64,000 bases of DNA from Octopus vulgaris. Its lineage: Eukaryota. The notes beneath the pieces were generated by a model. It saw only the letters and a list, made by a program, of their open reading frames with translations. It did not search any database and was not told the DNA's origin. Below are positions 1-17,816 of this stretch, in pieces. The position numbers and the translations under genes are program-made. How positions within the stretch are numbered: the first letter of the stretch is position 1; every line of letters starts with the position of its first letter. Location of the stretch: assembly GCA_951406725.2 (NCBI GenBank), contig OX597818.1, forward strand, positions 42,408,001-42,472,000. The letters run 5' to 3'.

Positions 1-800
1 TGCTAACTTTTTCCTGGTAGTGCATGTTCTTCATCTCTAGACTATCATACAGGAGAGCAATACTAAAAGCATCCTTTTAGCCAAGTACTCCCACCCCCTA
101 CACTTAACCACTACATTCTCAAATTAGTACACTTGGGCAAAGAACAATGCTTTGAACAAAATCTCCCACCTCCGTGAATCAGACCCAGCACTGCAACCCC
201 TACAGGACCCTTAGCTGATGAAGGATTCTTCCATGCATTACATGGCCTGATAGCTCTCTTGCTGTTCATCCTTTAGCATTGAAACTGGCTATATCCAGCC
301 AAAATATTCTATCTGTTCAAACCAGCCTCACACACCTACTTTGCAATGACATTCTCAAAGAATACAATCACATTGAAGGTATGAGGTAATGAATGATTGA
401 GTCAAAATAATGTGAATGAATAAGCAATATATTTGACAATCCTTTTGATTGATCCCTTTGCCAGAGGAATTCCTGCAAGCTTGGAGAATAACTCTTGTGA
501 TCATTGTTTCTGTATGCAGTTACTTGCATGGAAATGGCCTTTTTGCTGCCAACTTAATTGTCCAGCTGAAAAGAAGCTAAATTTCAAACAAATGCACTCC
601 ACACTATCTGTATTCTGTATGTGTAAGTAAGCAAGCATCATTATAAATTTGTGTATGATCATTGCAGTAGTCATATATTGGAGAAATTCTTTTCCTTGGT
701 TTACCTTTTTAAAACTAGCTGGTCTTGTTGAGAAAAATGAAGGTGCATGTTGCCTGTCTAGTTGTTTTGTTAAATGTGGATCCTTTTTTGATTCTGTAAA

Positions 801-935
801 CTGCTATTTTTACTCCATTGTATGTCTTATGGCATATTGTGGCATTGATATATACAATAGCTACATAAAATTACTTCATCTAATCGAACTGCTTGGAATG
901 TTCGTCCTTGTGGTTTCGCAACTGTTGTTACATAT
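801..935 (+). ncRNA. Box H/ACA snoRNA candidate, copy 1 (predicted 28S pseudouridine guide, SNORA52/snR5-type site)
   Basis: Hairpin (GCTATT/AATAGC), H box ACATAA 863-868, second hairpin, ACA 930-932. Pocket TCTAAT (879-884) plus TTCGC (915-919) starts 15 nt before ACA and is complementary to 28S GCGAA-U-G-AUUAGA. Confidence 0.75.
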
Positions 936-1424
936 ATTTTACTTATATTTTCTTGTGGTAATACTGAGTTCCCCAGGTGTGTGACCTCATAGACTTGCAG
1001 CACACTGAATCCTTTCAACACCGACCTTCTTGGGACTGCCTCCAGTTCTATGACATAAATCTGTTTTAATTAGAAAGTTATTTTAATAAAATTCTTCATC
1101 GTCTTAAAAATTAACTAAACAAAAGCTGCTTGTTTTATCAAAAATATGGCAACAAAAGGGTAAGACACCTGTGTGCCCAGTAGTAGTGTAATAAGAGGCA
1201 ATTTGATTCCTTGGTATGTCTTTTTAAAACCAGCTGGTCTTAAAGAAAAGCGGAGAATGTTGTCTGTTCAGTTATTTTGTTTAAATGTCTACTTTGTAAA
1301 ACTGGAGCAGTCTCCTGCAAACATCTTCCACAATTTTCATCTACAAGTCAAATGCATGTGTCCATACTAGAGACCATCACGTACCAGATGGACACATGCA
1401 TTTCTTAAGTATTTATAACTTTGG

Positions 1425-1775
1425 GGATACTTTTTGGTTATCTCACCCCCCATTAAAAATTGGCTTATTTCCCTCCGTTTTACGAGAAACATCGGGGCTT
1501 TTGGTTATCTGCTTCAACTGGAAAAGTTGTTTAACCTTCAATAAAACAAAAAAAAATTAAACATTTTACTGAATCTGATAACTAATCATACTATGCCTAT
1601 TGAGGAGGCCAAACAAAATCAATGTGTTGAAGTACTAAATCAATAGGATCTAACTTTTTTGATCCAATCTGTTGTCGCCACATTAACTCGATTTTTTTTT
1701 TTTTTTTTTTTTTTTTTTAGTGGTGAGATAACCCAGTTTTTTAAAGGGGATTGAGGTAACCAAATTAAGTTGGTG
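1425..1775. mobile_element. Degenerate MITE-like element
   Basis: Imperfect ~50-bp inverted repeats (TTTGGTTATCTCACCCCCCATTAAAAATTGG vs CCAGTTTTTTAAAGGGGATTGAGGTAACCAAA). Confidence 0.35.
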
Positions 1776-1898
1776 ACTTCTGCTTTAACAAGTGATTTTC
1801 CTAAACTTATATAAAACTGGCATGTCTTTGTAGAGTGACAGTACACGTCCACTTTTTCGTGAAATTTTGTATATATATATATATATATATATTATAAT

Positions 1899-2039
1899 CT
1901 GCTATTTTTATTCCACTCTATGTCTTAATCTTATGGCATATTGTGGCATTGGTATATACAATAGCAACATAAAATTACTTCATCTAATCGAACCTCTTGG
2001 AATATTTATCCTAGTGGTTTCGCAACTGTTGTTACATGA
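1899..2039 (+). ncRNA. Box H/ACA snoRNA candidate, copy 2
   Basis: Same hairpin-ACATAA-hairpin-ACA layout and intact TCTAAT/TTCGC pocket. Confidence 0.7.
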
Positions 2040-2294
2040 TTTTACTTTTTCTTTAATCAGATTGGGTTGGTGTATCAATAAATTACTGTTGCTTTGTTAT
2101 TGTTCCTGATTGTGCTTTTTTTCTCTCTCTCTCTCTCTCTCTCTCCTATTTCTCTGTTAAGTTTAATGCTCTCTTCTCTGGGGAAAATGAGTTACGTTGC
2201 TTGTGAATTATATCCAGTGTGCCATTTACAATACTAACATGAATGTATACATGTCTGGTTGCTCATGAAATCTCCTAAATCCCTCTATTATAAA

Positions 2295-2429
2295 TTGCTA
2301 TTTTTACTCCACGGTATGTCTTATGGCATATTGTGGCATTGATGTATACAATAGCAACATAAAATTACTTCATCTAATCGAACCTCTTGGAATATTTATC
2401 CTAGTGGTTTCGCAACTGTTGTTACATGA
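2295..2429 (+). ncRNA. Box H/ACA snoRNA candidate, copy 3
   Basis: As copy 1; ACA at 2424-2426. Confidence 0.7.
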
Positions 2430-2702
2430 TTTTACTTTTTCTTTAATCAGATTGAGTTGGTGTTGGGTTTTTTAAACAACTACATCAATAATTTACTGTT
2501 GCTTTGTCATTGTTCCTGATTTTCTCTCTCTCCTGATTTTCTATTTCTGTGTTTAGTTTAATGCTCCCCTAGTTACGTTGCTTGTGAATTATATCTAGTG
2601 TGCCATTTACAATACTAACATGAATGTATACCTTAAAACTAGCATGTCTTTGTAAAGTGGTGGTACACATGTCTGGTTGCTCATAAATCCCTCTATTATA
2701 AA

Positions 2703-2837
2703 TTGCTATTTTTACTCCATTGTATGTCTTATGGCATATTGTGGCATTGATGTATACAATAGCAACATAAAATTACTTCATCTAATCGAACCTCTTGGAA
2801 TATTTATCCTAGTGGTTTCGCAACCGTTGTTACATGA
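2703..2837 (+). ncRNA. Box H/ACA snoRNA candidate, copy 4
   Basis: As copy 1; ACA at 2832-2834. Confidence 0.7.
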
Positions 2838-3120
2838 TTTTACTTTTTCTTTAATCAGATTGAGTTGGTGTTGGGTTTTTTAAACAACTACATCAATAAA
2901 TTACTGTTGCTTTGTCATTGTTCCTGATTGCGCTTTTTTTTTTCCCCTCTCTCTTTTCTATTTCTCTGTTTAGTTTAATGCTCCCCTTGTTACGTTGCTT
3001 GTGAATTATATCCAGTGTGCCATTTACAATACTAACATGAATGTACACCTTAAAACTAGCATGTCTTTGTAAAGTGGTGGTACACATGTCTGGTTGCTCA
3101 TGAAATCCCTATATTATAAA

Positions 3121-3255
3121 TTGCTATTTTTACTCCATTGTATGTCTTATGGCATATTGTGGCATTGATATATACAATAGCTACATAAAATTACTTCATC
3201 TAATCGAACCACTTGGAATGTTCGTCCTTGTGGTTTCGCAACCGTTGTTACATTT
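3121..3255 (+). ncRNA. Box H/ACA snoRNA candidate, copy 5
   Basis: As copy 1; ACA at 3250-3252. Confidence 0.75.
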
Positions 3256-3600
3256 TATTCGTTTTCTTTAATCACAACACTCTGTTAGTGTTGAGTTTTT
3301 AAAACAATTACATAGATTACAGTTTCTTTATTCATACAATATTGTGCAAGCATTTCTACATACAGGTATGGGGTGTTTTGTCATTGTTCCTGATGGTGTT
3401 ATTGAAAATTTTTCCTTGTTTTTATTTCTGTATTTAGTAAATTGCTTTTCTTCAAATGATACTTTGCTGGGAAAATAGTATATTTCTTAATTTCTCTTCT
3501 CTGTGTGGAAAATAAGTTATGTTGCTTTTGCCTTATATCCAGTGTGCCATTTACAACACTAACATATGGCTGCAAACATCATTTCTCTAATAAACTTAAT

Positions 3601-3751
3601 TCCTGCTGAGCTGATTTTACCCTCTTTCATGTGTTTCTAATTGGATAAAGGTACTCAAAAGCTATACTTGTAGGAAAATCATGCTTAAGAATTATATACA
3701 AATGGGTGATGAACCTCTTCCATTTGGAGAAGTCTACAATTCAACTGTTTT
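3601..3751 (+). ncRNA. Unrelated box H/ACA RNA candidate
   Basis: Hairpin TCCTGC/GTAGGA, H box AAATCA, hairpin CAAATGG/CCATTTG, terminal ACAatt. Confidence 0.5.
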
Positions 3752-3801
3752 CAGTTATATTGACAGCAAAGTTGTTTGAATTATACTTATGGCTCAGTCA
3801 A

Positions 3802-3936
3802 ATGCTATTTCGCCCCACATGGTCTTTTTTAAGATAGTATGTGGATCTTGTTTAAAATAGCTACATTAATTACTTCATATAAATCGAGCTGCTTTTGAAT
3901 TTATTCTTCAGTGGTTCCGAGAATGTCGTGACAAAT
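3802..3936 (+). ncRNA. Diverged paralog of the H/ACA array (copy 6)
   Basis: GCTATTTT/AAAATAGC and CCACAT/ATGTGG stems, H box ACATTA, GAGCTGCT/AGTGGTTC stem, ACA 3931-3933; pocket sequences changed. Confidence 0.65.
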
Positions 3937-4071
3937 AACATTAGGTTTTTTGGGGTTTTTTTTCTTCTTTCATTCTATTATTTTATTCCTTACACTTCAA
4001 CTAAAGTGTCTTCATTTTTTAGGTATTACAAGGTAGCTTAAATTTACTTCATACTTTATAGATATTGTAAT

Positions 4072-4200
4072 AACTGGGCTGATAGTTATGTGCTGTTTCT
4101 TCAACATTAACAGTGCTTCACTCTGGCAGAGAGCAATGCTTTTAAGCAATTCATATATCCCCATAAACTGGATGGGTGGTTGCTACTGAAGATTACAATT
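4072..4200 (+). ncRNA. Unrelated box H/ACA RNA candidate
   Basis: GTGCTGTT/AACAGTGC hairpin, canonical H box AGAGCA 4130-4135, AGCAAT/GTTGCT hairpin, terminal ACAatt. Confidence 0.55.
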
Positions 4201-4414
4201 GTGTGGGACTATCATCACAAAAAATAGCCCTATACCTCTTCTGCCTCACAAAATTGCAGCTGATCCTTTTGGTACCTTGCCAGAGGGATCTCTTCTAATT
4301 TTCAATCATAGTGGTTCTGTAAACAGCACTTGGTTTTTGATTTCACCATTTTGTTGACTGGATGTTGTTCTCAGACCAGGGAAACCAGCTAGGGTGCTTG
4401 CATCAGATTGGTTT

Positions 4415-4632
4415 CTGTTTAAACCGGCTATATCCGGCCCATATATTCTACTCATTTTATGCTCAAATTGGCCGGAACCAGTATCTCACACCTACCTTGC
4501 AATGTCATTCTAAAAATAAACAATTACATCTTTCAAATCTTGAACCTACAAGATAATACCAGATTAATTTTTTTTAAATGTAAATGAATAAAGATTACTA
4601 TTGACATATTAATTTGAACGCTAAAGGGTTAA
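4415..4632. mobile_element. piggyBac-like MITE fragment
   Basis: Ends ...CTAAAGGG|TTAA; related copies at ~270-430 and 54788-54994. Confidence 0.55.
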
Positions 4633-5030
4633 GGCATCCCATGCACTCTCAGGATGAGGAAAAGTCTTCTCAATGAGCTTCAACATTGTTTCTGTCTCTT
4701 AAATTTCACTTACAATGCTTTGGTTGGATTGAACCTATAGTAGGAGGCTCTTATGCATGGAACTATGTTCTAAGGTTAACCTGAAATTACATGGCCAGTG
4801 AGTCTGCCATCCCGGATGATCATCTAGTGAATGGGAAAACATTGAGTTACATATTGCATTTGTAGGCATTTATGATGAGCTCTTTTACAACTGTGTGTGT
4901 AGTTTCATTGAGATTTGATTATTTCTAGCTGGTTAGACTCCCTCATTGGCTTGTCCATATAAAGTTTATTTAATTGTAGAGAGAAATAGTGGCACGTTTT
5001 ATGTTAAATTTTTCTGGACCCTTCTCTATA

Positions 5031-5173
5031 AACTATTTTCACTTCATAGTATGTTTTAATCTTATGGCCAATTATGACATTGATGTAGAGAATAGTGACA
5101 TAAAACTGCTTCATCTACTCAAAACTACTGGAGGTTTCACAAATGGTTTTGGGTTGGCCAGTTCACTATATTT
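5031..5173 (+). ncRNA. Diverged paralog of the H/ACA array (copy 7, possibly decaying)
   Basis: Compensatory stems ACTATTTTC/GAGAATAGT and TCATAGT/ATTATGA, H box ACATAA, second stem CAAAACT/GGTTTTG, terminal box ATA rather than ACA. Confidence 0.5.
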
Positions 5174-5469
5174 CAGTTGCTTGATTCATCATTTTACCAT
5201 GTTGCCACGCTGATCCCTGGCAAATAGAGGTGAGCAGTGGAAGAGAATATAATGATGAAACACTGTTCGGTAAATGTTTTAAGGAGATTAGATAGTAACG
5301 TGAGTGGCATGTAGTAGGGGAAGCAGTGAGTAGTGGCTAACAATAATTGGGATTTGATATAGGCAGATCAAAATTATACTTTCCTTCTTTACATGGGGGG
5401 GTAACAGGTCAGAGTAGCTACAATGTCAGAATATTAAGACTAAGACTGAATATAAAGGAAAGATACAAG

Positions 5470-5990
5470 ACTGGCATCCTCCATGCTGTACAAGCATAGT
5501 CTTCTCTTACACTACTTCTGATTCTTAATATCTAATTTTTCCCTCAGCTCATTTTTTACACATTACTTATCCAGTAGGGAATGGTCACATCATTTCCTTC
5601 CAATTCTTGCACACTTTCTGTGAAAACATCTCCCTTGTATTTTCTAATATTTTCTTATTCTGGCTTGAAATGCTTTTAGAACACCTACCACCATTGTTCA
5701 TGAGGTCACCCAGGTAACAAACTGCATCAGCTGTTGGGTGGGTGACTTTTCAAGCCCTTAATCTGACTTTTACTGTTCACCCATTCTTGTGTGTGTTTTT
5801 ACATATGAAATCTCTAGTCACCTCACTTCACTTTGTGTATCCCTAGTTTTGTGGCTATACTGGAAATCTCACTCACTCTTCTTCTGGACATCAAGCATGA
5901 CTGCTTTTCTGACAGCAGTTGAGTTCTGTCCTTCCTGCTGACTGAAAACTCTTGTTTTACCTTGAGTGCATCTCTAAAGTTTTGCATATA
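5470..5990 (-). mobile_element. Degenerate RTE-clade LINE fragment
   Basis: Minus strand gives a CYLGDL-like RT C-terminal motif at ~5700-5725; heavily decayed. Confidence 0.4.
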
Positions 5991-6304
5991 GCACCACATA
6001 TTCTTGACTCCTCTGACCTACTTAATGAATAGGGTTTTAATAATACATGTCTCTATCTAGCCTATATGATCTAATTTGTACTTCAATCCAACACGCAAAG
6101 TCTTACAGGTTTGACACCTGATGTTTTATATTGCTTTTAAGTCAATTTATCACTGAGACCATCTAGGCAAATGGTTAATATTTACATATATCTTATGCAT
6201 GGTTTTTCCAGATATTGTCTGAAAATTAGGTGTTTTATGCTGTGCTATCTGTTGATGCTCTCTTGAAATGTTAAAGAATTGCATTTTTTATTTTTTTCAA
6301 TTAG

Positions 6305-6514
6305 GTAGTAGATGTCATACATCCTGGACGGGCTACTGTACCTAAGACAGAAATCCGTGAAAAATTAGCATCTAAATACAAAACTACACCAGATCTGATT
6401 TTCTGCTTTGGTTTCCGGACACAATTTGGCGGTGGAAGAAGTACGGGGTTTGCTATGATATATGACACATTAGATTTTGCAAAGAAATTTGAGCCTAAAC
6501 ACAGATTAGCAAGG
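6305..6514 (+). CDS. RPS24: 40S ribosomal protein S24 (eS24), internal exon
   Basis: ttag|...|gtatgt; [70 protein letters not shown]. Upstream exons not found in window. Confidence 0.97.
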
Positions 6515-6698
6515 GTATGTATTTTTCTTTCCCTGAATTTTAAATGTGTAATTTGAATCAACATTTAGCTAAGGCTTTGTAAATTGTAAAAAAATATATG
6601 TTGTTTAATATTGAATTGGATAATGTAAAAATTGATGAAATAGATTCAAGATGTAGAAGTAAATGAAAACATTAGAATGGTTTTTGTTTTTCTTTTAG

Positions 6699-6809
6699 CA
6701 TGGTCTCTATGAGAAGGGAAAGATAAGCCGCAAACAGAGAAAAGAAAGAAAGAATAGGCAAAAGAAAGTACGGGGTGTGGCTAAAACCAAAATTGGTGCT
6801 GGCAAGAAG
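6699..6809 (+). CDS. RPS24: RPS24 next coding exon
   Basis: tttag|...|gtaacg; [37 protein letters not shown]. Confidence 0.97.
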
Positions 6810-7030
6810 GTAACGTTTTTTTTTTGTGTGTTTTTGCTGTAAATTGAGCAAAGTCTGCTTTCAGTATTCTTTGTGAGCGGTGCTTCTTCCAAGAAAGCTG
6901 TTGTTGTTCATTTTGTAATTTTCTAATTATCAATACTCCGCTTTCCCATTTAAAGTAGTGATGTAGATAATGCTGTATTTCCTGTATTTTGGTATGTTTT
7001 ACATCATGAAATATTTTGTTTCATTTTTAG

Positions 7031-7061
7031 AAAAAATAAGATTCTACTATTTCTATATCTG
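7031..7061 (+). CDS. RPS24: RPS24 candidate 31-nt cassette exon (KK-stop)
   Basis: catttttag|AAAAAATAA...ATCTG|gtaaga. Confidence 0.65.
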
Positions 7062-7577
7062 GTAAGATGGTTGATATATCTTCGTTTTAATGTTGATGCC
7101 ACCAGTGTTTCCTGAATGTTGTGCTCCACTTTTGAACTGATGTTTTCATTGTTCATATAAATTATTCTTAATTACCTCCTAGCACCAGTCTACCGTATTA
7201 GAATAGTTTATTTTACGCATTGACTTTTTCATGTCTGTAAATATTCGTTTAGATTTTTAACTGTTGTACTTCCATTTATCCATGCTAACTTAGGCATGAT
7301 GGTTTCGGAATTTCAGGCATAATGCTGGAGCATATTTTTTAGCAGCTCTGTTAGCAATTTTCTTGCCTTTAACCCCTCAACCTAAAAGTATGAGTTGGTT
7401 AGTTTACACAGCTGCTTGTGTTGAGACAGATATACATACATTGCCTAAAGGAACAGTACAATGGCAGTTGTATGTATTCATAATTACTGCTTCAGCAACT
7501 TGGTTGTTCTAATTAACCATAAAATAATACTGTTTGTTCATTTTGGATTATACAGGCCAATTTTCAAGTCTTTTCAG

Positions 7578-7860
7578 AAATTTGTATAGATTATATTTGT
7601 ACAGACATGAAAGGGTTTGTATTGTTGTGTGTTCCCCTTTTTTTTTTTTTTTTTTTTGCATGTTACATACAAAATATGACTGGCATTACACTTTTTGCCA
7701 TGTACCATTATGTTGTTTGTAAATATAGTTCCTCTTGCTTTGAAAATTTGTGGGTTTAACTTTACCAAGGTAATTAACCCTTCAGAGCAAGGTTTAAAAA
7801 ATTTTTTAATACACACATCATAATTTGTACTCTGAAATAAAAGGTGAAATTAGTGTTGGT
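7578..7860 (+). CDS. RPS24: RPS24 candidate alternative terminal exon (KFV-stop plus UTR)
   Basis: cttttcag|AAATTTGTATAG; AATAAA at ~7836. Confidence 0.45.
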
Positions 7861-8608
7861 CACTGTTTGTCAATTTGCCATATTCTGTATGTAACTTAAC
7901 ATTTAATTCAGAGAGTGCGTGACAGTAATTGTAGGCATTGAAAGTCACAAATAGTCTGCTTCCTGATCACCTGCTCTCATACACTTTGTTTATGTTTTGA
8001 ATTAAAACTAATCTCCTGGGTATATTTTCTTTTACCATTAAATATACTCAGTAACGTTGGTTTTGTTGTAAAAGTGCTACTGCACATATTAAAAGTAGTT
8101 TAGAGATTTTACAACTATAAAAGTCAATTGATAACGAGTTCATTAAAAGGAGGGTTGCTGATATTCATACAAGAAGTATGAACCTCAACTTGGAGTGGAT
8201 GTGAGAATGCCATCGAGTTAAATCATCCCACTTTATGTAACATTGAGATTTGGTGTTTAACAGTTAGGTATTTTGATGTGAAATTGAGTGTTCTGTTAAA
8301 ATTCCTGTAACAATTTCTTATTTTGTGTTGTTAATTTGTTTTTAGAATTACGATATTAGTTATATCAGTAAAATAGATTTAAAAGACTATTAAATTGTTT
8401 TATGATTACTATAGCATGCAAAGTATTTGCTGTTTGGAGTGTTGAGTTTTTTGATAACATTGTATTACCACTGGGTTATTTTTACTAACATCGTTTGCTG
8501 ATGTGTGTGTGTATATATATACACTTCATTTTGAAATTCATTGGGAATTTAAACTGTAGTTTCTGCTTGAATGGTTTTCTAATTTTTCTTTTTCTTTTTT
8601 CTTTCCAG

Positions 8609-8685
8609 TGAGGAGAATGATCCCGGGCATCTGTTTGATATCTGTTTTTACTGTGGAATAAAGTTGTTCCTGGTATCTGTATTTT
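8609..8685 (+). other. RPS24: RPS24 candidate distal terminal exon (begins with TGA stop; short 3' UTR)
   Basis: Strong polypyrimidine tract and ccag|TGA; AATAAA 8657-8662 followed by U/GU-rich sequence. Confidence 0.65.
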
Positions 8686-9110
8686 TCTGAAGTTATTCCA
8701 ACTATATTTCGTGTTGTGCTCAATTTTTGTGAAGCACCAAATTTCATTTGTAAATTATTTGGTGTATTCATTGTTATTTCAACAACCACATGCAAAATGT
8801 CCTCTATCACCACCACCTCCGTAACATATTTCATTGGTTGTTTGTCTAATGTCTACTTTTGATGAAGCCACCTATTAAAGATAAAGCATCATTTGATCAT
8901 TAAACATTTTTTGCTCATTATATTACATTGGCACCAACTTCAATTATGGAAATTGGTGTTTGATATACTTATGTATAATCATTTTCTAATTTTCTGTAGT
9001 TATTATGTTAGGGCTTCCTAAATGTAGTTCATAACTTTTGTTACTTATGTCATTTAATCATCAATGGAAATAGATGTTTCAATAGTAACCTGTAAGACTT
9101 ATACCTTTTC

Positions 9111-9325
9111 CTATTTCTTTATTGCCCACAGGGGGCTAAACATAAAGGGGACAGGCAAAGGGATTAAGTCGATTGTGTCGACCTCAGTACGTAACTGATA
9201 CTTAATTTATCGAGGATGAAAGGCAAAGTCGACTTTGGCGGAGTTTGAGCTCAGAACGTAGCGGCAGACGAAATACCACTAGGCATTTCGCCCGGCATGC
9301 TAGCGTTTCTGCCAGCTCGCTGCCT
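9111..9325 (-). mobile_element. tRNA-derived SINE, family A
   Basis: Reverse complement of GGCGGCGAGCTGGCAGAAACG...GACTTTGCCTTTCATCC...AATAAAGAAATAG consensus seen ~10 times in the window. Confidence 0.85.
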
Positions 9326-12309
9326 TATACCTTTCTGGTAGGGATTCCTTCTGAAGGGCAGAAGTATTGTTTCTCAAATACAAAGATTCATCTGTCATAA
9401 TATAGCTTTTGAGTGAGACATTGTGAAGTGAATTTTGTATGTTGGGAGTCAGAAATAATTTTGTAAAAGGTTCTTAATAGATGTATATGCTTTGCCAATG
9501 TAAAGCATGAGTTTACAATTGTGACTGGGTGAGTACTGCAATTTAAGAATAGGTTTCATTTAATAATCACAGTTTGTTTATTAGAACAAAACGTAATATT
9601 TTACGTTTTTCTGACCAATAGTCACCTTGAACGTTTGTGCATTTAATATGCGATTTGGGTTTGTTCAATTTCCTGGCAATGCTTATTTGATTATTCCTAC
9701 TGTTTCCAACAAGAGCTTGATGCTATCTCTGCATTACAAACGAATTTCTAAGGTGCTTGCAAGAGTATTATAGAGGTGATTTGCAGCAAGCTCTATAGAT
9801 GACTACAGCTGGAGTAGGCTACTTGAGTATAGCATTTATGGTAACAAGAGTGAAACATCAGTTTCCTCTAGAATGACCATGTTTGCTGATTAGAAATGGC
9901 ATCTTCAAGAGAAAAAGTAGCTCTGTTGCACACCATTTGCAGGTAATGGGACAGTTTATTGAATTAATTGGAGAAGGAAAGACTTTAGAACATCAATAGA
10001 ATAGTTAGGTACAGAGGAGATACAGCACAAATGTGCCAGTCTACAAAGTCCTAAAAAGTAGATTAGGTTGTGGTCTAGGGATCAACAGTGTTCTAAATCT
10101 GAGAATTGGTCATAAGAATTAACTGTAGTCATTTCCTTAAAGGTATATGTGGAGCAGATTGCAGTATTGTGGCTTTAGATTTGAGGCCATTTATGGTTCA
10201 CAATCAAATCTGACTGAGAAGGGAGGAGAGCATTTGGATATGTTACGAGAGATTAGAACAAAGCACAATAATTTGGATCTTAACCTATACATTTGGCATT
10301 GTTAGAGATAGGATTTTACAAACTTAGCTGAAGAAATTCGGGTTTAGAAAAGCTTAACCATGGCTAGGGTAGTTAAGTAGAAGTATGTTTTGGCAGTCTT
10401 AGATTCACTCTCTGAGGAAATATATTATCACAGCTGGAAATAACTTAGATCATAGGGCTGATTAGCAGTTAAACAACCTGGTAAAGATTTTTTTTTATGA
10501 CTGAAATTGAATCTCTTGCAAAGTTTTGATCATGTAGTTCAAGGAACGAAGTAGTAATCATCATTATAGGCCAGGAATTTGTTGGTCTGGGTGCAATTCT
10601 ACAGAAAGTCAAACAAATCAGTTAATTAGGAGCAAATTCCGAGTATAGAAGCAAAGCCTACAGAATAAAATTGGTATATTATGACTGGCTGGTGGAAAGA
10701 TTCTGTATACACAGATTTAATTAGCAATGGGTACCTTCAAATGCCTAGAAGTTGACAGCCAAAGTATAAGGACATGGTGACTAAATTGAGGTAGGTATTA
10801 CTTTTGCCAGCAATGTGAAAGGAACATTATGTAATGCATGATGTACAAAGATATTGTATGTACATTAAATGTACTGATTAGAAAGCATACTTGTGGTGTC
10901 AACTAGAGCATCCAAGGAAATTTTGTGCAGACACACAACAGAGTTTGCTGGAAGATTCAACAATGCTCTGAATTACAGGTACAATTCATTTTGCCAGCTG
11001 AGTAGTCTGGAGAAATGTGAAATAAGGTATCATGCTCTGGGACAATCCACTGCTAAGTATCAAACTCACATCCTAAGATTGTGAACCAAATACTCTAACC
11101 ACTAAGCCATGTGCCTTCACTATTACACTAAGTAGAACAAAGTGACCTATGCTGCATTAATAATCTTGTTTCATGCTAACAACCCTTTAAATGATGACAA
11201 AATCCAAGTAAAATACAATTGCTGGCTCTGGAATTATTTTCCTTCCATATTCTTCATACAGTCAAAATTCTATACAACTCCAAACTGAACAAAAGTTGCT
11301 AGAACAGTACTCTGATATATATGTATGTATGTATGTGTGTGTATATATATATATGTATGTATATACATACATATGTGTTACAATGTTCTACAGTACTCTG
11401 GCAAACAAATGCTTTAGTGAACTTGCTAGATGGAAATTGCAGGAGCCTATTTTGTGTGTGTTGGTTTGTTTACATCACCTATAACTTAAAGGTTCAATAA
11501 AAAGTGACCAGTAGAATAAGTACCAAACTTAAATACAGCATTGGTGTAGTCTAGTGACTAATAAACAAAAGAAATTCATTGTTTTTTTTTTTATCAATTT
11601 ATTTTTAAAAATTCTTTAAAACCATAAAAATATTTTAATAAATACATAGTTGAAACAAAGTAGTAATTCGATTTCAGAAAAAACAGTTGAATAATATTAA
11701 ATACATAGTGCATTGAGCCTTGAGATCAAGAAATGTTTCAGATAAAGGTAGATTAACTGCTTTTCACCATTATGGTTGTTTAACCTCTATAGATCTTCAG
11801 GGAAACACTATTGTGTTACAGAGAACTAAAGTCTGAACTTTGGTAAGTATTTTGTGAGATAAGCAGAAAGATGAAACAAAAGAAAGCCTGAACAGAAGTG
11901 GAAAATGTGTATGTTGAGGGTAGAGTTAGGTAGACACAAACTGGAGAAATCCATACTATACTAGTGTTACCACTCATGACAACTTAGGAAGTATCCTTCT
12001 ACCACTGGGTATATCAAGAAATATAATTTAACCCACTCATACAAAATGAAATTAATACTAATTTTTTTTTTTTTTAAACCCTTAAAATTAAATGTAACAG
12101 ATAAAATATTTTTAAAAAATGAACAAGATTGTGTTGATTTTATTTAATGGGAAATTCACTGGGACTTAAATGTTACTTTCGTCATAAAATATGACTGGCA
12201 AAGTGTAGGTTATCAAATCCCTATACATTGAAACCAACAAGAGCAAGTTCATTATATGCATTCCCTATCCTTCATGCTTCCTTCACTGAGTATTTCTTTT
12301 AACTGCCAG

Positions 12310-16704: not shown

Positions 16705-17150
16705 ATAAATGTATAAATTTTTCGCACTAAATTCTTTCCGTAGAATTTATAAAAAAACGCGCAAAATTATTCCGTAGACTTTATCAAATTAAAAAACGCA
16801 AAATTAATATATTTTTTGAAATTGCAAATTATTTAGAATATAAAACAAATTAAGTTAAATTTTAAAAATAAATGTCATATACTTATACTCTGTAAGGTGC
16901 TGTGTTCACACTTCAATTTACTATTTTCTAGAAATGTTGCTTTTCTAATTGAAACAATTTTTCTCAATCTCCATTTAAAAGTCCATAATGCCTCTTGAGC
17001 CATATCAAAATGAACAACTTTGAATTACCCGGTGGTGGTGGTGTGAGGTTCTAATTTTTTTTCTGATCTCTCTTTGCCCCCCCTAGATGGAGGTGTGGTG
17101 GGGAGACAGATGAAAGATGTTTCATTCTCTACTATATATGTATATATATA

Positions 17151-17187
<37 letters not shown>

Positions 17188-17816
17188 CTTAAACCTACAC
17201 GATATAGTCTATAAATTTGGGATGTTTTTGAAAGATAATATATTTTGTCATCAGAATATATATACTTTCTCACACTACAATTAAGATATATTTATTTTAA
17301 ATCGTTCATCTTTTCCCGCGACAACAAAAATTGGGCGCGAAAATTTTTCTAAATATTAGCTGAATGAACAACTGAGATAAAGAGGGGGCAAAGAGAGATC
17401 AGAAAAAAAATTAGAACCTCACACCACCATCACCACCACCGGGTAATTCAAAGTTGTTCATTTTGATATGGCTCAAGAGGCATTATGGACTTTTAAATGG
17501 AGATTGAGAAAAATTGTTTCAATTAGAAAAGCAACATTTCTAGAAAATAGTAAATTGAAGTGTGAACACAGCACCTTACAGAGTATAAGTATATGACATT
17601 TATTTTTAAAATTTAACTTAAGCACCTTACAGAGTATAAGTATATGACATTTATTTTTAAAATTTAACTTAATTTGTTTTATATTCTAAATAATTTGCAA
17701 TTTCAAAAAATATATTAATTTTGCGTTTTTTAATTTGATAAAGTCTACGGAATAATTTTGCGCGTTTTTTTATAAATTCTACGGAAAGAATTTAGTGCGA
17801 AAAATTTATACATTTA

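Follow-up and report, generated by a model that had tools for sequence, protein, structure and literature searches.

Pseudouridine 1004 of yeast 25S rRNA, in helix 38, is the site of the box H/ACA snoRNA snR5 (PMC8307265) and has been equated with human 28S-1731, the site of ACA52 (PMC3542256). Together with positions 1042 and 1052, it is among the yeast pseudouridines that matter most for subunit joining in helix 38 (PMC8307265). The chicken homolog of ACA52, GGgACA32, is hosted by the ribosomal-protein gene RPLP2 and carries its guide in the 5' hairpin (PMC2653536). Intronic clusters are the general arrangement of H/ACA loci in Drosophila (PMC3089462), so that several H/ACA RNAs per intron are already known outside vertebrates, and snoRNAs are known to move between broadly expressed host genes (PMC3511168). 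A guide may be kept where its target is gone, as SNORA35 is in mammals though its target, 18S-350, is a C; the opposite outcome is that of pug18S-1279, lost together with a U-to-C change (both PMC6984369). For cephalopods, a giant squid study reports only snoRNAs found by Rfam homology (PMC6962438).

We analysed a window of 64,000 nt of the Octopus vulgaris genome (G000:C5:42408001-42472000, in a 2.8-Gb assembly), for which an earlier note had proposed, from the sequence alone, an H/ACA snoRNA array in one RPS24 intron. A profile search of the window and the 40 kb upstream of it yielded eight related units of about 135 nt with the layout hairpin-H-hairpin-ACA, all on the sense strand and all inside RPS24 intron 2: five of a type that we call A, two of a type B, and one diverged. 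The earlier note had correctly described five near-identical units with the layout hairpin-ACATAA-hairpin-ACA and a tandem array of four with a period of about 400 bp; it had missed the three further units (c0, c6 and c7) of the same intron. The features are the following, positions without a prefix being those of the window.

L007:9665-9803, + strand: c0, type B unit, just upstream of the window
1..6304, + strand: part of RPS24 intron 2, which begins 2,526 nt upstream of the window and is the host of all eight units
801..935, + strand: c1, type A H/ACA-like unit; H box 863-868, ACA 930-932
1899..2039, + strand: c2, type A unit; H box 1967, ACA 2034; 6-nt loop insertion common to c7
2295..2429, + strand: c3, type A unit; H box 2357, ACA 2424; likely c5/c2 mosaic
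2703..2837, + strand: c4, type A unit; H box 2765, ACA 2832; likely c5/c2 mosaic
3121..3255, + strand: c5, type A unit; H box 3183, ACA 3250; TCTAAT 3199-3204, TTCGC 3235-3239
3802..3936, + strand: c6, type B unit; H box ACATTA 3863, ACA 3931; source of the copy on chromosome C23
5030..5170, + strand: c7, diverged relative of type A; H box 5098, ACU instead of ACA at 5165, AUA at 5168
6305..6514, + strand: RPS24 exon 3; Pfam S24e match
6699..6809, + strand: RPS24 exon 4; contig joint 6513-6698; open frame

The host gene is identified by window positions 6305-6514, which encode Pfam Ribosomal_S24e (E 2e-30). Exons 1 (ATG at L007:6276) and 2 (L007:7406-7474) lie upstream of the window, and exons 1 to 4 joined give an open frame of 131 codons. 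The letters of exon 2 stand directly before position 6305 in contigs of two RNA-type runs (X9 and X17) from two studies; the RNA status of these runs is a guess of the search tool, and contigs cannot reveal RNA ends. Because the contigs join exon 2 straight to 6305, the stretch between exons 2 and 3 is one intron, 8,830 nt long, starting at L007:7475 and with GT-AG ends (GTGAG...TTAG), which bears out the single RPS24 intron of the earlier note. RNA-type runs show low-level cover within this intron, and no RNA holder is recorded for the stretch, which says nothing on its expression. Further downstream in the gene, 7031-7061 is a possible 31-nt cassette exon with AG/GT ends that codes KK-stop, and the last exon (8609-8662) opens with a stop codon and has AATAAA; this arrangement resembles the alternative C-terminal exons of vertebrate RPS24.

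All eight units have an ANANNA H box in the hinge, and seven have an ACA 3 nt from the predicted 3' end, the eighth being c7 with its ACU/AUA. The type A units c1-c5 are 86-98% identical in pairwise comparison, each with ACATAA as its H box, and four of them are spaced 390-418 nt apart. The type B units are 86% alike and 63-68% identical to type A; for c7 the identity to type A is 65%. This last unit has a clean Watson-Crick lower stem and an altered pocket, and may be inactive. Identity is confined to the units: it is 86% for c0/c6 and 96% for c1/c5, against 45-52% for their 140-nt flanks (45-49% for c1/c5), where the background is 40-50% (30 random pairs). From the variable columns and the identity of the flanks, c3 and c4 would be recent c5/c2 mosaics from unequal crossing-over, and c1, c2 and c5 would be older; the high identity of c1 and c5 could come from gene conversion. 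A 4.1-kb segmental duplication, of c0-c1 into c6-c7, is not claimed, as spacing and one dispersed repeat are all that back it. Two copies of a high-copy dispersed repeat, at 270-440 and 4420-4610 and about 4.15 kb apart, follow c0 and c6 respectively at comparable distances.

With eight units in sense orientation in one 8,830-nt intron, the locus resembles the intronic H/ACA clusters of Drosophila, where there are likewise several genes per intron and tandem paralogs with diverged pockets; here, however, the genome is that of a cephalopod, and the likeness described is one of arrangement. Clustering and host switching are already known, and every ingredient of the locus has a precedent. The multicopy cluster in an RPS24 intron is real, but the significance of several snoRNAs per intron, which is the usual arrangement for H/ACA snoRNAs in Drosophila, had been overstated; so had the novelty of RPS24 as a host, host switching being general (PMC3511168).

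In folding, the 5' hairpins of all units beat shuffled sequences (z -1.6 to -4.0); for the 3' hairpins the advantage is smaller (z between -0.6 and -2.3 across the units, and between -0.6 and -1.8 in type A). The type A 3' hairpin has its upper stem and a weak or imperfect lower stem, and its 15-nt pocket requires the opening of two terminal upper-stem pairs, with 3 guide bases staying unpaired. Among 39 hand-drawn pairs in c1-c5, 30 are invariant, three have one-sided changes with the pair kept, one has a two-sided change, and the remaining five deviate only through unpaired cells. Stem variants that preserve pairing, as read earlier, are therefore present, but the proportion of paired cells (90.3%) is equalled by 309 of 500 shuffles, so that covariation provides no independent support. 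The CAB box of scaRNAs is UGAG; no UGAG was found in the terminal loops of the units, nor any above-chance target in U2, U4, U5 or U6. The loops of the 5' hairpins sit 18-20 nt from the H box and are therefore outside the H/ACA pocket distance rule of 15 +/- 1 nt (PMC8522698).

The 3' pocket of type A, TCTAAT plus TTCGC, is invariant in all five units, and TTCGC begins 15 nt before the ACA, exactly as had been noticed. At this distance the pocket makes 11 of 11 Watson-Crick pairs (5+6) with the usual eukaryotic 28S site GCGAA-U-G-AUUAGA, that is, type A carries the full antisense element for yeast 25S U1004 / human 28S U1731. Counted directly along L157, a 25S contig of yeast type that contaminates a bacterial assembly, the U is number 1004, and the earlier note's identification of the site as that of yeast Psi1004 (snR5) and human ACA52 is sound (PMC8307265, PMC3542256). 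In one fungal-type rRNA set the site was the sole perfect match of at least 11 bp, when 9 of 300 Markov-resampled sets had any; it was the best match in 4 of 5 fungal-type sets and the second in one, the sets having been chosen for carrying the motif. Descent of the type A pocket from a Psi1004 guide is thus likely on good evidence, which is not decisive because we chose the pocket post hoc among some six types of hairpin. An 18S site before GUCCCUGCCC in other eukaryotes, with 9 bp to the type A pocket, was rejected, as the GAUCAC of the animal's own 18S breaks the match. At least 48 bacterial or archaeal genome records (L138-L185) contain eukaryotic rDNA by contamination, yeast-type and insect-type contigs among it.

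The closest described guide is accordingly snR5/SNORA52 (ACA52, RF00419), which shares with type A the 28S site that the pocket fits and a length of about 135 nt; chicken GGgACA32 is likewise intronic in a ribosomal-protein gene. Type A differs in having its pocket in the 3' hairpin, not in the 5' hairpin as in the chicken homolog, in its host, RPS24 rather than RPLP2 (the host that the earlier note names for SNORA52, and that of the chicken guide; PMC2653536), in its five copies, in the absence of an Rfam match and in the absence of the target U from its own rRNA. Rfam scans of the whole window, of positions 1-10,000 (at E<=10), of loci nearby and of five units taken singly yielded no credible family, so that the Rfam check proposed earlier assigns no unit to a family; the RF00419 model itself, for which 45 candidates were scored genome-wide and the five units scanned by themselves, gave no match at E<=10. 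Nor did nhmmer, a scan for motifs or a model built on sequence only detect a unit homolog in any of 80 RPS24 loci from metagenomes (80 returned of 129 that encode RPS24), a weak negative since many of these loci are short and do not contain the full intron. In the absence of a family and of a homolog, the argument for ancestry is the 11-nt match.

The octopus rDNA was located by a conserved 28S motif, found at 32 places. A tandem array on chromosome C20 (G000:C20:23957096-24072353, L025-L027) has an 18.4-kb unit with full 18S (2,643 nt), 5.8S and 28S (about 4,890 nt), a GC content of 64-65%, and two units that are 99.9% identical. At position 1445 in own numbering, this 28S reads GCGAA-C-G-ACUGGAG. 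Of the 32 places we read 31, parsing 24 with a script and inspecting 7 by eye, and 3 of these end before the site; the base is C in 25 of the 28 copies that span it and T in 3, which are dispersed and decayed, and it is C in 7 of 7 array copies read (8 array places). In the Rfam alignment the helix 38 position remains paired, with G opposite in place of the usual A (U-A to C-G), and the C is therefore a fixed compensatory change and no error. C is not convertible to pseudouridine, so that the predicted pseudouridine cannot form in this genome's 28S. The target that had been claimed, GCGAA-U-G-AUUAGAG, is thus absent from the animal's own rDNA, and with it falls the claim that type A guides that pseudouridine here: membership of the H/ACA class is likely, and the predicted function is wrong for this genome as assembled. 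Among the 10 yeast pseudouridine positions between 960 and 1124, 4 (1004, 1052, 1056, 1110) are not U in the octopus 28S. On this 28S the type A guide retains 10 of its 11 pairs, with one mismatch and one G-U (-9.2 kcal/mol, against -13.5 for the yeast-type site). None of the five pockets has been altered to fit the changed rRNA, which makes strong selection for pairing with the own 28S less likely. SNORA35, likewise an H/ACA RNA that is well conserved although its ancestral target in rRNA is now C, belongs to another family and site, and the octopus guide is also amplified.

We give a probability of roughly 0.55 to the reading of these units as an orphan cluster, that is, H/ACA snoRNAs cut singly from RPS24 intron 2, with a type A pocket derived from a Psi1004 guide and a modification target that has been lost. 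Box H/ACA snoRNAs would likely be excised one by one from the intron; the type A pocket would likely go back to a guide whose target was the uridine of helix 38 (yeast U1004); and, with C at that position of the own 28S and hence no such pseudouridine, the RNAs would likely persist as orphan guides. From the sequence we infer expression as discrete RNAs, binding of dyskerin and its partners, endonucleolytic release of the internal units, and purifying selection. Because the type A pocket still pairs 10 of 11 with the own 28S, a non-modifying contact with 28S in 60S assembly would, we think, be its most likely retained role.

Copies outside the intron bear on separate release. Genome-wide matches number at least six for c4, at least three for c6 and at least two for c7; among the matches listed, those outside RPS24 intron 2 are one full copy, on C23, and one 49-nt fragment, on C29. 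The C23 copy (L189:1499-1632; G000:C23:31256160-31256293, minus strand) matches c6 at 132 of 134 nt and spans from the first base of the c6 5' stem (3802) to ACA+2. Beyond this end come an A-rich run and then a dispersed repeat; another repeat flanks the other side of the copy. Like snoRNA retrocopies, it comprises no more than the mature RNA, with A-rich sequence at its end, and unlike them it is fused to a dispersed repeat, with no target-site duplication of at least 7 nt found. Its outline points to a reverse-transcribed mature snoRNA and would lend indirect support to separately released RNAs; since c6 is the seventh of eight units and the 5' end is exact, cutting would take place between units. 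Retrocopies of snoRNAs were suggested to be mammalian in the chicken study (PMC2653536). The C29 fragment (L011:3340-3389; G000:C29:7040339-7040387, minus strand) holds 49 nt of the type A 3' hairpin and abuts the start of a common SINE-like repeat, of the same kind as that beside the C23 copy.

It is possible, if rather unlikely, that the guides have been retargeted and still make pseudouridine at another U of this animal's RNAs. The strong conservation of the units needs some function, and there are candidates: 28S U1038 with the type A 3' pocket (12 pairs, 3 of them G-U, 15 nt from the ACA), 18S U1918 with the same pocket (9 Watson-Crick pairs, upper stem intact), 18S U1849 with c7 (15 of 17 pairs), and, for the 5' hairpin, U6 U86, given that all three types have kept a 5' strand that suits U6 GUGAAA and that the modification sites listed for chicken include U6-86 (PMC2653536). 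These fits were scored with a simple home-made substitute for RNAsnoop and snoGPS, in one scan of seven unit-hairpin sets against the own 18S, 5.8S, 28S, U2 and U6 and in a second that adds U4 and U5. In the RNAs so covered, 28S included, no target beats resampled controls. The score of U1038 is reached by 5-8 of 20 resampled sets, and the best type A 3' score of the second scan by 18 of 30; for type B, 5-14 of 20 and 18-26 of 30 controls are as good, the c0 5' hairpin giving no pocket in the first scan. For the 5' hairpins, whose loops are too far from the H box for the distance rule, 8-26 of 30 controls are as good in the second scan. Nearest to significance are the c7 3' hairpin (1/20) and a type A 5' match through a weak alternative stem (1-2/20). 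A loose first pocket scan, which allowed guides to invade their own stems, had given c7 with 18S U15 and U1462 and type B with 28S U1598, all lost under stricter geometry. The failure on own RNAs lowers the case for an active guide and not that for an H/ACA RNA, as orphans exist; the type A 3' pocket satisfies the 15-nt geometry though the target U is absent from its own RNA. One U6 copy (L136:1501-1607) reads GUGAAAC, where vertebrate U6 has GUGAAGC, and many copies of U2, U6, U4 and U5 occur in tandem groups.

Two other readings we hold to be improbable. In one, the units are functionless relics, alike through recent unequal crossing-over and gene conversion, as would suit the recent mosaic look of c3 and c4, the weak lower stem of the type A 3' hairpin and the lost target; c0/c6 and c1/c5, however, retain boxes, stems and pocket while their flanks have decayed to background, and a recent RNA-like copy exists on C23. 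In the other, the outer units cap a fragment of several kb as in a SLERT-like sno-lncRNA, or the cluster is a cis element acting on RPS24 splicing. Two snoRNAs in one intron can give snoRNA-ended long RNAs in vertebrates (PMC11028025), and the low-level intron cover would agree with such an RNA, but in the C23 copy an internal unit has both its mature ends, and the last unit, c7, does not have a canonical ACA.

About as improbable is the modification by type A of the yeast-1004 equivalent on further rDNA, of a class missing from the assembly, that would still have U there. Assemblies of rDNA are often incomplete, and the perfect 11-bp fit is retained in all five copies; yet the exact usual site occurs five times in 2.8 Gb, which equals the control count, and never in rDNA, and a looser pattern returned six dispersed, decayed fragments, 78-97% identical to the array, all of array type and consistent with CpG decay. 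No second type of rDNA was found genome-wide with either pattern, and the compensatory nature of the change and the near-identity of two array units also speak against one. A dispersed transposon or SINE family, the outcome that would have undone the snoRNA interpretation, is rejected, as copies outside the intron are few (the counts being lower bounds) and read depth is 2-12 over the array against thousands on nearby repeats.

The cluster corrects a tempting prediction, since an animal's rRNA may be without the target even where one of its guides fits the textbook site. A likely H/ACA cluster, previously unannotated and with no Rfam match, is thereby described. Its five copies that hold a perfect pocket for a site gone from their own ribosome are a puzzle, and they allow a concrete test of what keeps orphan snoRNAs conserved. 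A description of the cluster was not found in the literature on RPS24-hosted or cephalopod snoRNAs, on Psi28S-1192 clusters and on guide-target co-evolution (a coverage that excludes most subscription papers), nor in that on multiple cephalopod rRNA forms. One might speculate, though we think it unlikely, that the GC-rich rRNA of this lineage erased several conserved pseudouridine sites of the A-site finger (yeast 1004, 1052, 1056 and 1110) and that the stranded guide was kept and amplified for a new job, such as mRNA modification or a chaperoning of helix 38 that leaves it unmodified; cephalopods would then be a natural test of H/ACA roles beyond pseudouridylation. Two of the three key yeast positions of helix 38 (1004, 1042, 1052) are not U in this genome, so that both the ribosome and its stranded guides are worth mapping. 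Elsewhere in the window, at 16736-17786, a duplicated unit of 34 nt has its two occurrences in inverted orientation at a distance of some 1 kb, as the termini of a DNA element would be.
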